From positions 32,001 to 96,000 of the IMG/VR virus record IMGVR_UViG_2974666281_000001: 64,000 bases of DNA; one strand, given 5' to 3'. A program made the position numbers and the translations under genes. This stretch comes from a virus (lineage: Duplodnaviria > Caudoviricetes). The stretch's first letter is position 1, and every line of letters begins with the position of its first letter. Shown in pieces: positions 2,937 through 42,842 of this stretch. The notes under the pieces were generated by a model. That model saw only the letters and a program-made list of their open reading frames with translations. It was not told the DNA's origin and did no database searches.

Positions 2937-3952
2937 TGATTCTGTACCTCAACATAAAGTTGCTTAGATAATGCTTTCAAAGATTTAATATCTTCTTTAG
3001 ATGCATCAGGCAGAGCTTCAATATACTCTTCCATTAGTTCAAGCAAACTTTTAACTTCGATTTCTTCTTCACCGTCTGATTCTACAGTGTTATCCACCTT
3101 AGACACAACACGAAGAGAATGAACTACCTTTTCAAGTTCAGACTCAAACTTTGTAAGGTCTTTGTCAACCTTTTCAACAATAACACGGACTGCTAAGTTT
3201 TTGAAATCATCAACTTGAATAGTATCATTAGGATAAAACACTTTACGGTGCCAAGTTACAGCATTAGGAATAAAATCAAAACTTCCTTTCTTAGTGTCTT
3301 GTACCCAGAAACCACGTGGATCGTTTTCATCGCCAGCAGTTAGTGTCCATGGAGTACCGATGTACTTCACGTTAGCGGCTTCACTGATAGTATGGAAATG
3401 CCCAGACCAAACTTGCTTATACTTCTTCAAGAAATCAGGTTCAAGGCCATGAGATTTCATACCTTTATAAAAATAAAAGCCATTGAGTTCCCAGTGTCCA
3501 ACACAATATTCAGCCGATGATGTTCTAATATGCTCTAAAATTTCGGTTGTGTTTTCATCACACATCCATGGAATCAAGTCAATCAAAGTCCCGTCGAAAT
3601 CCATTGTAACAGGTTTTTCTATTACAGTAATATTTTTGTACTTACCAAGAACTTCTGTTGCCGCATTAGGAGTTAGAGTGTTCTTGTAGTGCATATCGTG
3701 ATTTCCCACGATAGTAACTAGATGAATACCAGCTTCTTCTAATTCTGTTGCAATCAGACGAGCAAACTCCATACATTTATGGGTGATTGCTTTACGAACG
3801 TCGAAGATGTCGCCATATTGAATAATATTTTTAATGTCATGCTTTTTAGCATAAGCAATATGGTCTCTGATACCTTTCAATTGGATTTCTTGGACCCAAG
3901 GGTCATCTGCTTTTACACCTAAGTGCCAATCCCCAGAGTGGATAATTTTCAT
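2933..3952 (-). CDS. 47: recombination endonuclease nuclease subunit gp47 (Mre11/SbcD-like)
   Basis: Metallophosphoesterase motifs GDWHLG, GDIFD, GNHD, GHFH. Confidence 0.98.
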   Translation of the reverse strand: MKIIHSGDWHLGVKADDPWVQEIQLKGIRDHIAYAKKHDIKNIIQYGDIFDVRKAITHKCMEFARLIATELEEAGIHLVTIVGNHDMHYKNTLTPNAATEVLGKYKNITVIEKPVTMDFDGTLIDLIPWMCDENTTEILEHIRTSSAEYCVGHWELNGFYFYKGMKSHGLEPDFLKKYKQVWSGHFHTISEAANVKYIGTPWTLTAGDENDPRGFWVQDTKKGSFDFIPNAVTWHRKVFYPNDTIQVDDFKNLAVRVIVEKVDKDLTKFESELEKVVHSLRVVSKVDNTVESDGEEEIEVKSLLELMEEYIEALPDASKEDIKSLKALSKQLYVEVQNQ

Positions 3953-4092
3953 ATATCAAGCGCCGTCATCGCAATACAAAATAAGATTAATGAGATGAAC
4001 CCGTCAGGAGTAGAAAAGAACCCTATCCAACAAGCTCGTGTGAATGTATAGAAGGCCATGAATAATACGACCCATCCTAAAAACAATATCAT
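3949..4092 (-). CDS. 47.1: small membrane protein gp47.1-like (47 aa, not in ORF track)
   Basis: MILFLGWVVLFMAFYTFTRACWIGFFSTPDGFISLILFCIAMTALDI; RBS GAGGAG; stop overlaps gene 47 start. Confidence 0.8.
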   Translation of the reverse strand: MILFLGWVVLFMAFYTFTRACWIGFFSTPDGFISLILFCIAMTALDI

Positions 4093-5095: not shown

Positions 5096-5323
5096 TTATT
5101 CCGGTTTGTAATTTAATTCAACGAAGAAACCTTCGTCCGTAACCTGGTATTCGTAAGAAAGAACTCCCGATTCGGTTGTTATCTCTTCAAAACCAGGATT
5201 CTTGGGGTCAATAATAATAGGCAACTTCTCGATATCCCGTAAATACATTTTAAGCAAATAAGGAATAGCGTTTTGGTCGCCTACTTCTTCTAGGAACCCA
5301 TTGAGGTTAAGTTTGAGCCTCAT
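5096..5323 (-). CDS. a-gt.5: a-gt.5-like protein
   Basis: [12 protein letters not shown]; directly downstream of gene 55. Confidence 0.8.
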
Positions 5324-5843
5324 ACAAAAAATCCAATGCATTATCATCTTCTAGATTTAAGACCTTTGTATCAGACCCTGGTACTTTAACTAGAGATGAT
5401 TCGTACTGCGTCATTTTATCATAGATGTCCTGAATAAAGGTTTCATCTGCTAACGCAACCATATCATCGTCACGACTGTCGTAAACATTGTGAACGAAAT
5501 AGCTGTATTTCTTTGCAACTTCTCTGCGTTCTTTTTTGATACGCTGAACGAATGCATTAAAACAAGCCTGGGTTATGTACGCATGTGGGTTGTTATACTT
5601 ATTTTCATCGAAGTTTTTAAGACCTTTAATTGCGGCCTCAATACCGTCCTCAATCATTTCTTGCTTCCAGGATTGGGTATATCCAGAGAAGTTAAAACGT
5701 TTTGAAAGCCCTTCTGAAATAAGCATGATAGCTAAACCAATTTCATTAGTCATTGGAATAAGTTTGTCTGGGTTTTCAGCACATTTCTTTTTCCATCGAC
5801 AAATTTCTTGATAAAGCTCTTTATTATTTACATAGTTTGCCAT
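5307..5843 (-). CDS. 55: late-transcription sigma factor gp55
   Basis: YVNNKEL...[20 protein letters not shown]...[21 protein letters not shown]. Confidence 0.98.
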
Positions 5844-31643: not shown

Positions 31644-32128
31644 TAGTATGCACCCCAAGTGCCAGTTTTAAAAGTAGAAATAACGCGCTTTGCACGGTTC
31701 GTAGTCTGATTATACCATCGGGATTTAGCTAAGTTAACTGCTGCTTCGTCCCAACGTTTTTCTTTAAGCATACGCATTGAATTAGTGAATCCTGCGACGC
31801 CTGCTACACCCATCTGGAACACCATATTAATCAGTGCTGCTCGACGGATTTCGTCAAGAGAATCGTACACAGGCTTCAGAACGCTGTTGCCTTGAATACC
31901 TTTAACAGCTTTCTCAACATCTTTAGCAAAGATACTTTCAGCTTCATCTTGAGTAATCTGTCCATTACAAGAACGACCAACAAGTTTGTCGAGTTCTGCT
32001 TTAGCTACTGACAGAGAAGGGTTTTTGGTCAAAAGATGACCGATTCCGATAGTCCAATAACCTTCGGTATCTTTATAAATTTTAGAATCGTATCCTTCGT
32101 CGATACGAAGCATTCCAAATATATCCAT
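31643..32128 (-). CDS. e: T4-type lysozyme (endolysin)
   Basis: MLRIDEG...[16 protein letters not shown]...[10 protein letters not shown]. Confidence 0.99.
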
Positions 32129-38303: not shown

Positions 38304-38339
38304 TTTGGTTCCTTTAAATATGAATTAGGTTTATTTTTA

Positions 38340-38347
38340 TATTTATC
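38340..38347 (-). promoter_or_regulatory. probable late promoter
   Basis: GATAAATA (variant of TATAAATA). Confidence 0.55.
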
Positions 38348-38349
38348 AT

Positions 38350-38495
38350 ATTCGCCCAGTGCTCGCCGCTTGCTCAGATACCCTAAAGGGTCCTACCGAA
38401 GTAGAATCCTTTAAGATTTCGGCTCTGATGACGTAGTTACACCCAGAGGTCATTCGCCAGCCTTGCACCTTCATGTGTAATATCCGGTGCCATTC
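38350..38495 (-). ncRNA. candidate structured RNA at the 3' end of the tRNA cluster
   Basis: Hairpins GCACC/GGTGC and CTCTG/CAGAG with complementary loops, plus a long C-UUCG-G hairpin. Confidence 0.6.
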
Positions 38496-38496
38496 T

Positions 38497-38859
38497 TTAT
38501 TCTTCGTACCATGGAGTTCTTAAGTGGTCGTCACTTTTTCGTGCTCGTATCCACCCATTGATGACTTCCTGAGCATGTTCGGAATTAATGATACGTTTAC
38601 ATTTATTAAGCATACTGCGTTTGTAGTACATTGAGTTCAACGGGATATCGTCAAGCAAATCTTTAAGCTCAAAGTACTCATCAGTTGTATTTACATCAGG
38701 ATGTCGTGATTTAATGAACTGCCAGTGACCGTAGTCATTTTTAGTCCAGATGAAATCACACATACGAGATAATTCGGAGACGTTCATAACATAGTTGTTT
38801 GCGTCAATATAGTAAGTGCGACCTAAAGTGCTAAAGTACATTAATTTTTGAGTGGCCAT
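38497..38859 (-). CDS. hypothetical protein
   Basis: Start MATQKL with RBS GAGG. Confidence 0.75.
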   Translation of the reverse strand: MATQKLMYFSTLGRTYYIDANNYVMNVSELSRMCDFIWTKNDYGHWQFIKSRHPDVNTTDEYFELKDLLDDIPLNSMYYKRSMLNKCKRIINSEHAQEVINGWIRARKSDDHLRTPWYEE

Positions 38860-38877
38860 TATAATTTCCTCAGAATT

Positions 38878-38942
38878 TGGCGAGGACCTTCTGCACCCCA
38901 CCACGCGTTGGAAGCCAAGGGGTGTTGTCAGCCAAGTACCTC
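38878..38942 (-). ncRNA. 65-nt CCA-terminated non-cloverleaf RNA
   Basis: 5' GAGGTAC pairs with 3' GTCCTC followed by G-CCA; no T-loop or D-loop. Confidence 0.6.
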
Positions 38943-38948
38943 ATAATT

Positions 38949-39033
38949 TGGTGCACCGAGAGGGATTCGAACCCTCAATCCTTGCGGCGGGAGATTTTAA
39001 GTCTCCTGTGTATACCAGTTCCACCATCGATGC
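38949..39033 (-). tRNA. tRNA-Leu(TAA)
   Basis: GGAGA-CT-TAA-AA-TCTCC, long variable arm, encoded CCA. Confidence 0.96.
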
Positions 39034-39038
39034 AAATT

Positions 39039-39115
39039 TGGTCGAGACAGAAAGATTCGAACTTTCGACCGGTGGATTAGAAGTCCACTGCTCTATCCAA
39101 CTGAGCTATGCCTCG
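39039..39115 (-). tRNA. tRNA-Arg(TCT)
   Basis: GTGGA-CT-TCT-AA-TCCAC, CCA. Confidence 0.96.
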
Positions 39116-39119
39116 AAAA

Positions 39120-39246
39120 TGTTCAGGGAGGACTCGAACCTCCAAGATTGCAGCCTCTCGTCGGGTTACCTCTTACTCAGCTGGGTGCTTAAACCAGCGT
39201 TTCAAATAGAGTTCGCCAATATGTCTACCGATTTCATCACTGAACA
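39120..39246 (-). ncRNA. tRNA-like RNA with 72-nt domain replacing the anticodon/variable arms
   Basis: Acceptor TGTTCAG/CTGAACA, Leu-type D arm, T arm GGAGG-TTCGAGT-CCTCC, no encoded CCA. Confidence 0.8.
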
Positions 39247-39258
39247 ATTAATTTTATA

Positions 39259-39711
39259 TCATTGAGCTTGAAGCATTTCACGTACGCGATAAAGATTAGA
39301 ACAGAACTCTTGTTCTGTTAGAACAGTTTCATTCTTCTTATTTTTACCCATACTATGAGTTAGTGTTGAGTTACGCGTAGCCAGGATAGCTCTCTTGAAA
39401 CCTTCATTCAAAGCCATAGCATGATATGCACGAGATATTAAAGTTGCATAGGCTGGACTCTGGCGCTGCATAGGAACACCTTTCCAATACAATGTTTGAG
39501 TTCGCCGCCAGTTCTTTTTCTTACCTTTGAACTTAGCTTTCTTACCAACTAATGTACAAACATGTTCTTGCATTTCTATAGAAGAAAACTTCAAAGACTG
39601 AAGAAAACCTTCCATTGATGCACATTGTACACCATCAATTTCGAAAGCATGAGGAGCAAAGTTGCTTAATGCACAACTTGGGTACATCGAACCTGAGCCG
39701 ATATCCATCAA
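39259..39711 (-). CDS. NADAR-family protein (T4 gp30.3-like)
   Basis: PSCALSNFAPHAFEIDG...SMEGFLQSLK...TLYWKG...LTHSM...TVLTEQEF. Confidence 0.85.
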   Translation of the reverse strand: MMDIGSGSMYPSCALSNFAPHAFEIDGVQCASMEGFLQSLKFSSIEMQEHVCTLVGKKAKFKGKKKNWRRTQTLYWKGVPMQRQSPAYATLISRAYHAMALNEGFKRAILATRNSTLTHSMGKNKKNETVLTEQEFCSNLYRVREMLQAQ

Positions 39712-39932
39712 TAGTCTCCATTAGCAAGAAACATGTGAATATCATCAATATCTGTGATAATGTTTTCGATTTGGTCTTCAAAATTACAAAGCCAATTCAT
39801 TTCATTTGGAGATGAAATCCAATTAGCACATTGAATGCACTGATTACCAATTGAGTCTTGGTAAATCACTGCTTCAGAGTGTCCACCAGTTTTCCATTTG
39901 ATAATAGCAAAGCCTAAAGGATATTTTTTCAT
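39708..39932 (-). CDS. hypothetical protein
   Basis: 74 aa, coupled. Confidence 0.7.
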   Translation of the reverse strand: MKKYPLGFAIIKWKTGGHSEAVIYQDSIGNQCIQCANWISSPNEMNWLCNFEDQIENIITDIDDIHMFLANGDY

Positions 39933-40180
39933 ATGTCCTCTACTTGAGCCATAACAGTGCGTTTACGAACGACACATCCATCGAACCTTGGGTCTTTCTT
40001 ACGAACTACAAAACCCGAAGGGAGAACGAATCCATTAACAGTTCGTAAGGCTTCTTCTAAATCATTAAAGCCTGTGGCCTCAATGAGTTCGTCAAAGGCC
40101 CAACCTGGGAATTCAGTACAATCAACGTACTGCGCATAGGCTTTTTTAACTGGACAATAGATAACAAAATCTTGTTGCAT
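39929..40180 (-). CDS. hypothetical protein
   Basis: Start MQQDFV with RBS GAGG right after a tRNA. Confidence 0.75.
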   Translation of the reverse strand: MQQDFVIYCPVKKAYAQYVDCTEFPGWAFDELIEATGFNDLEEALRTVNGFVLPSGFVVRKKDPRFDGCVVRKRTVMAQVEDI

Positions 40181-40199
40181 TATATTTTCCTCATGTATT

Positions 40200-40275
40200 T
40201 GGTGACCCTGACTGAGATTCGAACCAGTGACCAATCCCTTATGAGGGGAGCGCTCTACCGCTGAGCTACAGGGCC
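40200..40275 (-). tRNA. tRNA with CAT anticodon (probably Ile2, or elongator Met)
   Basis: GGCCCTG acceptor, CT-CAT-AA loop, CCA; one extra base in the T stem. Confidence 0.88.
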
Positions 40276-40298
40276 ATTGTCAAAACATTGTTGCTTTG

Positions 40299-40325
40299 AA
40301 AATAGCCCTCTCCGAAGAGAGGACA
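40299..40325 (-). terminator. intrinsic terminator
   Basis: GTCCTCTC-TTCG-GAGAGGGC-TATTTT. Confidence 0.75.
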
Positions 40326-40332
40326 GAGGGTA

Positions 40333-40560
40333 TTAGCTACACATAAATTCTGCAACTTCATCGAAGCTATTCAGAATGTAATATAACTTAGGCTCACTCG
40401 TAGGAGTTGCCTTAATAGTGATACGTACACGACCGAACAGGTCTTCAGTCAGACCAACGATTGCACTTGAACGAACCACTGCTCGTCCGATTGGCAGGAT
40501 TTCGCCGGTAGCCAGAGCTTGCAGTTCAGTGTTGATTTCGATTACGATACGTTCAGACAT
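40333..40560 (-). CDS. early hypothetical protein
   Basis: Start MSERIV behind an early promoter. Confidence 0.75.
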   Translation of the reverse strand: MSERIVIEINTELQALATGEILPIGRAVVRSSAIVGLTEDLFGRVRITIKATPTSEPKLYYILNSFDEVAEFMCS

Positions 40561-40591
40561 TTTGATTTCCATTTGTTGTTTCGATGTAGTA

Positions 40592-40621
40592 ATAATAACA
40601 CGATTATTTTGAAGCGTAAAC
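40592..40621 (-). promoter_or_regulatory. early promoter
   Basis: GTTTACG-N17-TATTAT. Confidence 0.85.
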
Positions 40622-40633
40622 CGTTCAGAGACT

Positions 40634-40655
40634 AAAAAGCCATCCGAAGATGGCT
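40634..40655 (-). terminator. intrinsic terminator after tRNA-Gly
   Basis: AGCCATC-TTCG-GATGGCT-TTTT. Confidence 0.9.
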
Positions 40656-40661
40656 GAAATT

Positions 40662-40736
40662 TGGAGCATCCAGAGAGAATCGAACTCTCATCTACTGGGT
40701 GGAAGCCAGTCATAATAGCCGCTATACGATGGATGC
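40662..40736 (-). tRNA. tRNA-Gly(TCC)
   Basis: ACTGG-CT-TCC-AC-CCAGT, CCA. Confidence 0.95.
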
Positions 40737-40737
40737 T

Positions 40738-40811
40738 TGGCAGGCCCCGTAGGAATTGAACCCACGTCACTGAGGTTGGAGCTCAGGGTAATACCACTAT
40801 ACGAGAGACCT
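40738..40811 (-). tRNA. tRNA-Trp(CCA)
   Basis: CTGAG-CT-CCA-AC-CTCAG, CCA. Confidence 0.95.
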
Positions 40812-40817
40812 ATTGTT

Positions 40818-40892
40818 TGGTGGGAGCTGTTGGTAACGATCCAACCTCTCGAGCTCTTCAGGCAAGCGCTAATCCATCTCAGCTAAACTCCC
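40818..40892 (-). tRNA. tRNA-Phe(GAA), non-canonical
   Basis: CTTGC-CT-GAA-GA-GCTCG; T-loop ATCGTTA; CCA. Confidence 0.85.
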
Positions 40893-40894
40893 AG

Positions 40895-40972
40895 ATCCAC
40901 GAGAACTTTACTGGCATCGCGCCAAACCATTGCTGGAAGTTAGGGTACTATTTCTAGTCCGTGGTTGTCCCT
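40895..40972 (-). ncRNA. candidate structured spacer RNA between tRNA-Ile and tRNA-Phe
   Basis: Closing stem CCACG/CGTGG, internal AACTT/AAGTT and TGGC/GCCA. Confidence 0.5.
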
Positions 40973-40979
40973 ATTTTTT

Positions 40980-41055
40980 TGGTGCGAATACCTGGGCTCG
41001 AACCAGGGACCTACCGCTTATCGGGCGGTTGCTCTACCAACTGAGCTATATTCGC
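40980..41055 (-). tRNA. tRNA-Ile(GAT) with C33
   Basis: ACCGC-CC-GAT-AA-GCGGT, CCA. Confidence 0.93.
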
Positions 41056-41059
41056 GAAT

Positions 41060-41137
41060 TGGTCTCCATGCAAGGATTTGAACCTTGGACCTCCTGGTCC
41101 CAAACCAGGCGCTGCTACCAAACTGAGCTACACGGAG
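41060..41137 (-). tRNA. tRNA-Pro(TGG)
   Basis: CCTGG-TT-TGG-GA-CCAGG, CCA. Confidence 0.95.
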
Positions 41138-41138
41138 A

Positions 41139-41384
41139 TTAATTTATATCAAATATGGTGTTGTCTTTCCACATTTTAGCAAAAAGAGGAGAAACTTTTG
41201 TTAAACGATGAGCAACTTTAACACGATTATAATTGCCTTCAATTAAAGCACCATAGCCATTAATATCAGTTACCTTGGAAACAAGGACTTCGCCTACATC
41301 ACCCATGCTATTACATTTTAAGCCAATCATTACGAAATCGCCTACTGTAATAACTTTACCGTATTTGTCTAACAATGTCTTCAT
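41139..41384 (-). CDS. hypothetical protein (KOW/SH3-like)
   Basis: DKYGKVITVGDFV pattern. Confidence 0.7.
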   Translation of the reverse strand: MKTLLDKYGKVITVGDFVMIGLKCNSMGDVGEVLVSKVTDINGYGALIEGNYNRVKVAHRLTKVSPLFAKMWKDNTIFDIN

Positions 41385-41409
41385 AATTATTTATTCACCA
41401 TATTTTAAT

Positions 41410-41503
41410 TGGAGGAAGATGTGAGATTCGAACTCACGGGACCTGTCACCAGGACCTCCGCATTTCAAGTGTGGTGCAATTAGCCAGACTCTGCCAATCT
41501 TCC
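41410..41503 (-). tRNA. tRNA-Ser(TGA)
   Basis: CCACA-CT-TGA-AA-TGCGG, long variable arm, CCA. Confidence 0.93.
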
Positions 41504-41507
41504 GAAT

Positions 41508-41583
41508 TGGGGTGACCGGTGGAACTCGAATCCACGACATCCTGAATCACAATTAGGGGTTCTACCAACTGAACTACGGCCAC
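41508..41583 (-). tRNA. tRNA-His(GTG)
   Basis: CCTAA-TT-GTG-AT-TCAGG, C73, CCA. Confidence 0.93.
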
Positions 41584-41679
41584 ATCAATATTCTCTCTTG
41601 CAATCAAGATGCGTTGTCAGAATGTATTAGAATGAATCGCGTATTCAAACCATTTACACACTCAGAGAAAATATTAATT
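41584..41679 (-). ncRNA. candidate structured spacer RNA between tRNA-Gln and tRNA-His
   Basis: Closing stem AATATTTTCTCT/AGAGAGAATATT with internal hairpins. Confidence 0.5.
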
Positions 41680-41755
41680 TGGCTAGGGTATCTGGACTCG
41701 AACCAGAGCATGGGAGAATCAAAATCTCCTGCCTTACCAACTTGGCTATACCCTA
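41680..41755 (-). tRNA. tRNA-Gln(TTG)
   Basis: GGAGA-TT-TTG-AT-TCTCC, CCA. Confidence 0.95.
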
Positions 41756-41761
41756 ATTATT

Positions 41762-42139
41762 TTAGAAACCGAAGCCCACACCTACACCGAATACAGCTTC
41801 TTCAGAAGTTGCTGCAACAGAAGCTTTAAAAGCAGCAGGAGCATCGTTTGGAACAAAATTAATACCAGCAGCTAATGCTTGTTCACTGTCAAAACCACCA
41901 AAGGCTACACCACCAGATAGTTGATGACCTGGAACTACTGGAATATTAGTCATGGCTGCTACACCAGCTACACCAGCAGCGGCATATTCGCGGGCTTTAG
42001 TTACTTGTGCATTTGTATTTAAAGCACCAGCTCGATAAGAGTTATCTTTTGAAGCTGCGTCGAAATCAATTGGAGGCAGAGCTGCAAAAGAAGAAGCACT
42101 CATTACCAGGGTCATAACTGCGATAGTATGTTTCATCAT
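41762..42139 (-). CDS. YadA-like trimeric autotransporter membrane-anchor protein
   Basis: Signal peptide (..SSFA), AAAGVAGVAAM helix, four predicted beta strands, terminal FGVGVGFGF. Confidence 0.85.
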   Translation of the reverse strand: MMKHTIAVMTLVMSASSFAALPPIDFDAASKDNSYRAGALNTNAQVTKAREYAAAGVAGVAAMTNIPVVPGHQLSGGVAFGGFDSEQALAAGINFVPNDAPAAFKASVAATSEEAVFGVGVGFGF

Positions 42140-42168
42140 TTTTCATTTCTCTTGTTGTTGGAGTTTAC

Positions 42169-42194
42169 ATAATAACATATTATTTTAAAGCAAT
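42169..42194 (-). promoter_or_regulatory. middle promoter for the YadA-like gene and downstream tRNAs
   Basis: ATTGCTTTA-N11-TATTAT. Confidence 0.8.
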
Positions 42195-42195
42195 T

Positions 42196-42272
42196 TGGAG
42201 GCGGGTGATGGACTCGAACCATCGCGTAACGGGATATGAACCCGTCATTCTACCAACTGAAGTTAACCCGCA
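42196..42272 (-). tRNA. tRNA-Met(CAT), initiator type
   Basis: ACGGG-TT-CAT-AT-CCCGT (three G-C pairs), 1:72 mismatch, CCA. Confidence 0.9.
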
Positions 42273-42397
42273 TCTATCCGGATTCCTGAAGTACAAACAA
42301 GTAGCTCGATGTAGAACACATAAAGTGGGAACAACTTACTTCGTCCTCGGCATTTACTTACAGGACTCTAACTCATCTTCAAGAACTGCCTCGTATT
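42273..42397 (-). ncRNA. candidate structured spacer RNA between tRNA-Asn and tRNA-fMet
   Basis: Long-range stem TCCTG(T)AAGTA/TACTTCAGGA enclosing AAGTA/TACTT and ATGTG/TACAT. Confidence 0.55.
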
Positions 42398-42481
42398 TGG
42401 CGGGTAGTGTAGGATTCGAACCTACGTTGTCTTTCGACACGGATTAACAGTCCGCCGCTTAAACCGCTCAGCCAACTACCC
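42398..42481 (-). tRNA. tRNA-Asn(GTT) with long variable arm
   Basis: GCGGA-CT-GTT-AA-TCCGT, arm GTC-GAAA-GAC, CCA. Confidence 0.93.
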
Positions 42482-42488
42482 ATTTATT

Positions 42489-42565
42489 TGGTGGGACATC
42501 ATGGACTCGAACCATGGACACCCGGATTAAAAGTCCGGTGCTCTAACCAACTGAGCTAATATCCC
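42489..42565 (-). tRNA. tRNA-Lys(TTT)
   Basis: CCGGA-CT-TTT-AA-TCCGG, CCA. Confidence 0.96.
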
Positions 42566-42570
42566 GAATT

Positions 42571-42645
42571 TGGTACTCTGTAGGAGAATTGAACTCCTCT
42601 TTCCTGCGTGAAAGGCAGGCGTCCTAACCGATAGACGAACAGAGC
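42571..42645 (-). tRNA. tRNA-Glu(TTC)
   Basis: CCTGC-CT-TTC-AC-GCAGG, CCA. Confidence 0.95.
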
Positions 42646-42649
42646 AATT

Positions 42650-42725
42650 TGGCGGACCTAACGAGATTCGAACTCGTGACGCTCCCGTGACAGGGGAGTA
42701 TTTTAACCGCTGAAACTATAGGTCC
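42650..42725 (-). tRNA. tRNA-Asp(GTC)
   Basis: CTCCC-CT-GTC-AC-GGGAG, CCA. Confidence 0.95.
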
Positions 42726-42731
42726 TGAATT

Positions 42732-42820
42732 TGGTGCGCCGAGAAGGACTCGAACCTACGAAGCTCATTACAAGCAGAAGATTTACAGTCTCCACCCTTT
42801 GCCACTCGGGTCATCAACGC
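42732..42820 (-). tRNA. tRNA-Tyr(GTA)
   Basis: GGAGA-CT-GTA-AA-TCTTC, long variable arm, CCA. Confidence 0.93.
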
Positions 42821-42834
42821 AAAGAAGACGTTAA

Positions 42835-42842
42835 TATTTATA
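42835..42842 (-). promoter_or_regulatory. late promoter of the tRNA cluster
   Basis: Perfect TATAAATA just upstream of tRNA-Tyr. Confidence 0.8.

Follow-up and report, generated by a model that had tools for sequence, protein, structure and literature searches.

The transfer RNA (tRNA) array of a T4-like phage appears to be a mixed RNA operon, in which six structured RNAs that are not tRNAs lie between and behind the tRNAs, are under selection for their folds, and are probably released as small RNAs. The array lies in IMG/VR record IMGVR_UViG_2974666281_000001, of which we analyzed a stretch of 64,000 nucleotides (nt), positions 32,001 to 96,000, referred to here as the window; coordinates below are those of the window. 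A first-pass annotation had suggested that the array doubles as a processing scaffold for a suite of non-tRNA RNAs. What we could substantiate of that idea are six conserved non-tRNA RNAs, termed A to F, which lie on the tRNA strand, abut tRNAs, and carry compensatory changes across genera.

Six conserved elements in a T4-like tRNA array

The genome was recovered as one contig of 171,175 base pairs (bp), and every tRNA that it encodes lies within a single minus-strand array at 42820-38949. Seventeen minus-strand tRNAs were called in the window with ARAGORN and Rfam. The source phage is T4-like: over the 4.6-kilobase array region, identity was 96% to Erwinia phage Vettismorki and 94% to Serratia phage LC53, which are members of Straboviridae, Tevenvirinae, Winklervirus. 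The array and the six elements are as follows.

38949..42820, minus strand: tRNA array, in the order Tyr, Asp, Glu, Lys, Asn, element A, fMet-like, open reading frame (ORF), Gln, element B, His, Ser, ORF, Pro, Ile, element C, Phe, Trp, Gly, ORF, Met, three ORFs, element D, Arg, Leu
42273..42397, minus strand: element A, a four-way-junction RNA with a pseudoknot, from alignment and covariation
41584..41679, minus strand: element B, a Y-shaped RNA with a 15-bp basal stem (41678-41664 with 41598-41584)
40893..40979, minus strand: element C, a compact pseudoknotted RNA with six helices derived from 15 sequences
39120..39246, minus strand: element D, a tRNA-like RNA derived from tRNA-Leu, with a 7-bp acceptor stem (39246-39240 with 39126-39120) and a T-arm (39143-39127)
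38878..38948, minus strand: element E, an interrupted rod of 17 bp that has U(-1)/G(+1) at 38943/38942 and whose 3' GCCA occupies 38881-38878
38377..38495, minus strand: element F, two hairpins whose loops pair with each other (38479-38476 with 38441-38438) and, after them, a strong hairpin (38420-38377)

The five internal slots were found where the first-pass annotation had placed them (A, 125 nt; B, 96 nt; C, 87 nt; D, 127 nt; E, 71 nt), and the sixth structured element said to close the cluster corresponds to F at 38495-38377, whose hairpins and loop-loop pairing covary. Directly neighboring tRNAs of the array were closely spaced, at 1-9 nt, where that annotation had given usually 1-7 nt. 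Its description of folds whose ends pair with each other applied to B, D, and E, but not to C, whose terminal strands enter two crossing helices, nor to A, whose 5' tail pairs into an internal loop. Elements A, B, and C end 0-4 nt before the next tRNA and D ends 4 nt before it. Each element is present in one copy in the genome, and all six copies are within the array.

The tRNA regions of approximately 25 phages were collected, and one alignment was built per family, each with 7-15 distinct sequences. As controls, the covariation score of each alignment was compared with that of 500 shuffles, and pairing partners were slid along the alignment. The observed score was matched in 0 of 500 shuffles for all six families, and 92-100% of the alignment cells were paired, as compared to 20-64% with slid partners. 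Many compensatory changes were present in each of A to F, and family members were found in the tRNA arrays of other phages. The covariation across relatives expected under the first-pass proposal was accordingly observed in every family, and in A, C, and F it extended to pseudoknots or kissing loops. When fold energies were compared with those of shuffled sequences, only B stood out (z of -4.7), with A, C, D, E, and F falling between +0.4 and -0.9. Single-sequence thermodynamics would therefore not have supported the folds, and the case rests on comparison with other phages.

A scan of the array region against Rfam at a permissive threshold revealed nothing overlapping A, B, C, E, or F, and for D only a sub-threshold match to YrlA (25 bits), which spans the T-arm of D together with tRNA-Arg and is attributable to chance. 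The scan otherwise returned tRNAs and further sub-threshold chance matches, to a thermometer and, antisense to tRNAs, to plastid motifs. Rfam is also without a family for T4 rnaC or rnaD, and absence from it is therefore weak evidence of novelty on its own. ARAGORN found no tRNA in any of the slots, even with introns allowed or the threshold lowered. Most copies of A to F are unannotated in GenBank, some of the stretches being labeled as hypothetical proteins, and we found no description of the families in the literature. A to F are thus families without an Rfam match in the array scan, of a kind of element known since T4.

Folds and distribution of the individual elements

Helix P1 of element A (10 bp, 42386-42377 with 42291-42282) and the P2 hairpin covary heavily; in one compensatory example from P1, UUCUUGAAG... 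turns into UUCAGAGAG.... A 4-bp pseudoknot joins GGCA at 42390-42387 with UGCC at 42352-42349, and is formed by AGCA and UGCU in EcS1 and PM2. Over 15 distinct sequences, 96% of cells were paired (30-47% with slid partners), and 13 of the 29 pairs showed compensatory change. The apical insertion differs in length; the long single-stranded stretches are invariant. BLAST matched A in 223 phage records, including those of Karamvirus, Jiaodavirus, Marfavirus, Kanagawavirus, Moonvirus, and others. In the window and in most phages examined, A lies directly upstream of an initiator-like tRNA-Met, and the window copy of this tRNA (42196-42272, minus strand) resembles an initiator in that positions 1 and 72 are mismatched and the anticodon stem has three G:C pairs at its base. 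The motifs GAUGAG...GUCC...GGAC-GAAG were considered as a possible hammerhead, and this was ruled out, as the CUGA core is absent and no hammerhead model matched.

Element C is a pseudoknot, since P1 (40972-40969 with 40945-40942) and P2 (40964-40960 with 40901-40897) cross and each covaries, with compensatory changes in two of four and four of five pairs, respectively. Overall, 92% of cells were paired in the 15 sequences, compared to 25-45% with slid partners, and compensatory changes were found in 12 of 25 pairs. P3 and P4a are capped by GNRA tetraloops and P4b by a GNRA-like pentaloop, and the sequence GUAAAGUUC at 40911-40903 is invariant. Winklervirus, EcS1, and Taipeivirus of the Ackermannviridae have homologues, as do two phages of the Stephanstirmvirinae type, Citrobacter phage Tr1 and Erwinia phage Hena1, in their tRNA arrays. 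The fold is kept beside differing tRNAs and, in the Ackermannviridae phages, beside no tRNA. Wider pattern scans of IMG/VR for C and E yielded only random additional matches or near-identical phages.

The architecture of C recalls that of ribozymes of the hepatitis delta virus (HDV)-like type, in which strands are likewise ordered P1, P2, P3, P1', P4, P2' with crossing helices. Theta ribozymes, which are HDV-like, adjoin phage tRNAs on their 3' side in gut phages of Bacteroidota and Bacillota (PMC10879173), and C is found directly 3' of a tRNA in T4-like phages, Tr1, and Hena1. A further likeness is an invariant cytosine as the first nucleotide after P4, the position of the catalytic cytosine in HDV-like and theta ribozymes; this is alignment column 79 (window 40903), which is C in 15 of 15 sequences and directly follows the 3' strand of the proposed P4, a helix that is itself invariant and hence without covariation support. 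However, L3 in element C is the GNRA tetraloop that caps P3, a covarying helix of 4 bp, no nucleotides are available for P1.1, P1 has 4-5 bp rather than 7 bp, and only 0-1 nt separate P1' from P4. The HDV-type models of Rfam did not match C at E values up to 10. We do not place C in the HDV-like family, because P1.1 cannot form and P1 is short.

Element D retains much of a tRNA, including U8-G9, a Leu-type D-loop (AAUCGGUAGAC) in which GGUAGAC is invariant, and a canonical T-arm. A branched domain of approximately 75 nt replaces the anticodon and variable arms; its apical loop has 6-9 nt across homologues, and there is no anticodon arm with a 7-nt loop. Paired cells made up 93% of the total, and compensatory changes were seen in 19 of 24 pairs, among them six of seven in the acceptor stem and three of five in the T-stem. 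An encoded CCA is absent from D in 14 of 14 sequences, unlike the tRNAs of the array, all 17 of which encode CCA, with AAU next in most. The Rfam tRNA model did not match at 39120-39246, and ARAGORN rejected D even when introns were allowed; the GenBank record of Potts1 annotates it as a 131-nt tRNA-Ser. The acceptor stem, T-arm, and T-loop are shared with the tRNA-like domain of transfer-messenger RNA (tmRNA), but D lacks CCA, the G3:U70 alanine identity pair, a tag-peptide frame, a signal recognition particle domain, and any sequence similarity to tmRNA or to signal recognition particle RNA.

For element E, all cells were paired in the seven sequences, and eight of 17 pairs were compensatory. 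The 12-nt core of the loop, GGCUUCCAACGC, is invariant, and every member has AU ahead of the first G, a terminal stem rich in G and C, and a 3' GCCA. The predicted mature RNA corresponds to 38942-38878 (65 nt). Homologues are present in the tRNA arrays of Roskildevirus (Cronus), of Ro1 from the Vequintavirinae, and of the jumbo phages Kaldavass, RCIP0023, and fHe-Yen9-04. RNase P prefers U(-1), uses a 3' RCCA, and accepts a continuous helix in place of the T-loop, as in the precursor of signal recognition particle (SRP) RNA (PMC10731613). E resembles this pre-4.5S/SRP RNA in U(-1)/G(+1), the G-C-rich terminal helix, the 3' RCCA, and the helix in the place of the T-loop (PMC10731613), but differs from SRP RNA and tmRNA in having no sequence similarity to either, no SRP domain, and no tag-peptide frame.

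Three other identities for E were rejected. A tRNA cloverleaf was ruled out by covariation supporting a single rod and by ARAGORN, which finds nothing with a lowered threshold; a decayed tRNA-Thr, by LC53, which carries tRNA-Thr and E side by side; and a small ORF, a 24-codon frame from a conserved AUG, by the absence of a ribosome-binding site and by Ro1, where a 1-nt deletion breaks the frame and leaves the 17 pairs intact. In Kaldavass and fHe-Yen9-04 (approximately 1330-1570 of the fetched regions), a tRNA predicted to be an amber suppressor (anticodon CTA) lies 90-200 nt upstream of E.

The basal stem of element B begins two bases past the CCA of tRNA-Gln and finishes one base ahead of G-1 of tRNA-His, and the same stem precedes tRNA-His in 18 of 19 T4-like tRNA-His genes examined. 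For this stem and a small 3' hairpin, 96% of cells were paired and six of 18 pairs were compensatory. The spacer is a bare hairpin of 31-33 nt in PEi26, Kosakonia phage 305, and Q7622; elsewhere the stem carries a variable interior of 60-260 nt, mostly with two hairpins. A stable stem-loop in a pre-tRNA leader slows RNase P approximately 10-fold and can set the order of processing (PMC10731613). Our preferred reading is that B may act in cis as a clamp in the leader of tRNA-His, where it would delay RNase P or set the order of processing. Merlin has a second B-type element after tRNA-Asn (3953-4062 of the fetched region), followed by an ORF rather than tRNA-His, and the stem is therefore not strictly bound to this tRNA.

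In the nine sequences of element F, 99% of cells were paired and nine of 18 pairs were compensatory. The loop-loop pairing UACAC:GUGUA becomes UGCAC:GUGCA or UCGCA:UGCGA in relatives. The 3' hairpin is strong and covaries; in the window it has no U tract and was not listed by a terminator scan, and the PM2 copy is followed by UUU. A late-promoter motif comes next in relatives, indicating that F closes a unit. The 3' hairpin is terminator-like and would close the transcription unit, and part of F more likely acts in cis. Kosakonia phage 305 and Q7622 share the stretch after this hairpin (38304-38376, minus strand; GGGUAUCUGAGCAAGCGG...), which is in part 91% identical in EcS1 and may be a promoter or leader of the next gene.

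Transcription, release, and alternative explanations

Further features of the array that bear on its expression and content are listed here.

42835..42842, minus strand: exact T4-type late promoter motif TATAAATA, its last base 14 nt and its first base 22 nt upstream of tRNA-Tyr
40638..40655, minus strand: terminator-like hairpin and U tract 3' of tRNA-Gly, ending the first predicted transcription unit, which contains A, B, and C
40305..40324, minus strand: second terminator-like hairpin, after a 79-amino-acid ORF and just ahead of tRNA-Met at 40275
39259..39708, minus strand: ORF of the gp30.3 family (Pfam PF08010, E of 6e-59)
41762-42139, minus strand: 125-amino-acid ORF in the array with a YadA-like membrane anchor domain (Pfam E of 1e-8) and a signal-peptide-like N-terminus
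40821..40892, minus strand: tRNA-Phe(GAA) with a non-canonical T-loop, called by Rfam alone (36 bits) and missed by ARAGORN; annotated as tRNA-Phe in relatives

Exact matches to the late promoter motif number only two on the minus strand of the window. By sequence, the two terminator-like hairpins and the promoter-like site divide the array into at least three putative units. The gp30.3-family ORF is directly upstream of D in the window, and the relatives checked that share this arrangement are LC53, KPV15, and PM2. The T-loop of tRNA-Phe(GAA) reads AUCGUUA, without the usual UUC. A long variable arm is normally confined to Leu, Ser, and Tyr tRNAs; tRNA-Asn(GUU) at 42398-42481 (minus strand) has one and is 84 nt long.

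A to F would be transcribed inside polycistronic tRNA precursors, with the late promoter motif upstream of the first tRNA, and excised by the host enzymes of tRNA maturation to give products that would be stable and act in trans. A, B, C, and D would obtain their 3' ends when RNase P matures the 5' end of the tRNA that follows. For A, B, C, and E, the 5' end would come from cutting or trimming within the A/U-rich sequence, mostly AAU, next to the CCA of the preceding tRNA. D and F lie after ORFs, not tRNAs. Two elements have features of their own that match RNase P recognition: in D these are the acceptor stem, the T-arm, and the D-loop, and in E they are U(-1)/G(+1), the terminal stem rich in G and C, and the 3' GCCA. 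The six probably do not share a single job. D, as a mimic of the tRNA body, and E, as a mimic of the acceptor end, should engage tRNA-binding proteins; A and C are compact and pseudoknotted, in the manner of RNAs that have a protein or ligand partner or are ribozymes; and F would provide the last stable RNA of the array and, with its final hairpin, an end. B and part of F are more likely to be cis-acting, even within a reading that has most of the suite released.

Several observations weigh against this release. The single-sequence fold energies of five of the six elements are unremarkable, the alignments are small (7-15 distinct sequences), and the slid controls somewhat favor the structures, which were read off the same sequences. 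The two internal terminator-like hairpins imply that the array is not a single transcript, and the highly variable interior of B, shrinking to a bare hairpin, argues for a role in cis over a released RNA. The release of A to F as RNAs is itself a prediction from sequence.

One alternative is that the folds serve only to organize the maturation of neighboring tRNAs and mRNAs, by setting the order of cuts, blocking exonucleases, or insulating ORFs, and are then degraded, with no role for the free RNAs. The conserved part of B is a stem abutting tRNA-His, its interior is dispensable, stem-loops in leaders are known to retard RNase P and to dictate order (PMC10731613), F finishes a unit with a hairpin, and D is often between an mRNA and the tRNA block that follows. 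Yet A, C, E, and F keep long invariant single strands and pseudoknots, such as GUAAAGUUC in C and the loop GGCUUCCAACGC in E, that exceed what a spacer or brake needs, and the folds of C and E are kept beside differing tRNAs and, in Ackermannviridae phages, beside none. Moreover, the further families found in LC53 (rnaC and a long-hairpin family, G) sit where the window has 7-9 nt between the same tRNAs, which can therefore be encoded without those RNAs. We regard an exclusively cis-acting role as fairly unlikely. It is very improbable that the elements are tRNA genes in decay, neutral spacers, or small ORFs called in error. D is clearly derived from tRNA-Leu, the 24-codon frame of E starts from a conserved AUG in several phages, and GenBank calls such as hypothetical protein, or tRNA-Ser for D in Potts1, would fit decay or coding, but every helix is maintained by compensatory changes, ARAGORN finds no tRNA in any slot, and E has no ribosome-binding site and has its 17 pairs intact in Ro1, where the frame is broken.

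The first-pass annotation had also raised the idea of decoys or antitoxin mimics against RNA-sensing or tRNA-cleaving defenses. In such a role, A to F, above all D and E, would titrate or inhibit host proteins that cleave tRNAs, modify tRNA ends, or sense RNA. D has a tRNA elbow and acceptor stem with no anticodon loop, E displays a tRNA-like acceptor end, and the families are swapped in the manner of cassettes among unrelated virulent phages, as counter-defense genes often are. A viral tRNA is known to neutralize the PARIS defense system (PMC11464382). Nothing in the sequence, however, ties any element to a defense system; the known cases are functional tRNAs, not mimics; and the strong conservation of A in 223 phage records resembles that of a core function more than that of an arms-race gene. 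We consider the decoy reading quite improbable. A further reading would be a trans-acting toolkit in which at least one RNA is of a new functional class. In it, C would be a new self-cleaving ribozyme, with HDV-like topology and the invariant cytosine after P4 but no P1.1, which removes the 3' trailer from the tRNA before it, and/or D and E would be decoys against host enzymes whose targets are tRNA bodies or CCA ends, and would disarm them; we consider this reading unlikely.

The T4 precedent and a mosaic of RNA families

T4 produces two small structured RNAs, RNAC and RNAD, whose function is still unknown (PMC3014915; PMC9697503). RNAC is species 1 (139 nt) and RNAD species 2 (119 nt), and both are encoded at the end of the tRNA cluster in the order tRNA-Arg, rnaD, rnaC. 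The first-pass annotation had invoked this pair, and the comparison serves well as an analogy, but there is no homology, since neither family is present anywhere in the genome. Like the T4 RNAs, A to F are structured, lie on the tRNA strand, and directly abut tRNAs, and RNAC shares with D an acceptor-type stem, a T-arm, and the lack of CCA. Unlike them, the non-homologous A to F have other folds, including pseudoknots and a CCA-ended rod. Non-tRNA stable RNAs are reportedly also encoded among the tRNA genes of phage T5, according to literature of the 1980s.

An nhmmer profile of rnaC, which has homologues in LC53, EcS1, and 12 other relatives, recovered 15 relatives but found nothing in the window locus or the 171-kilobase genome (best E of 0.28), and profiles of rnaD and of the rnaD-like elements of KPV15, CkP1, and myPSH1140 likewise had no match in the window or genome. 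T4 rnaD was not linked to the rnaD-like elements by nhmmer, the motifs they share being recognized by eye only. The Phe-Trp spacer is 9 nt in the window (40812-40820) and 156 nt, with rnaC, in LC53; the Lys-Asn spacer of the window is 7 nt (42482-42488). LC53 carries rnaC, family G, and tRNA-Thr (3096-3251 and 1190-1430 of the fetched region) where the window has spacers of 7-9 nt or nothing, and, as judged from these sequences, the two are clean natural presence/absence variants for rnaC, G, and tRNA-Thr. In KPV15, the 100-nt Leu-Thr spacer (5310-5409 of the fetched region) has a T-arm-like hairpin (UAAGGUUCGAAUCCUUA) and pairing ends, and is probably a further tRNA-like family not found in the window.

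Ordered maps reveal a mosaic of at least nine RNA families among T4-like tRNAs (A to F, G, rnaC, and rnaD-like), of which C and E cross the borders of phage families. The roles of RNAC and RNAD have been unknown since the 1970s, and the genomic niche that they occupy in T4 now holds at least nine families in T4-like phages of Enterobacterales. Database annotation is corrected for stretches that were unannotated or called hypothetical proteins or an oversized tRNA-Ser. All nine families occur in phages cultured on E. coli, Klebsiella, Serratia, or Erwinia, and with natural presence/absence variants in existence, the question of what RNAC and RNAD do is open to comparison, deletion, and end-mapping.

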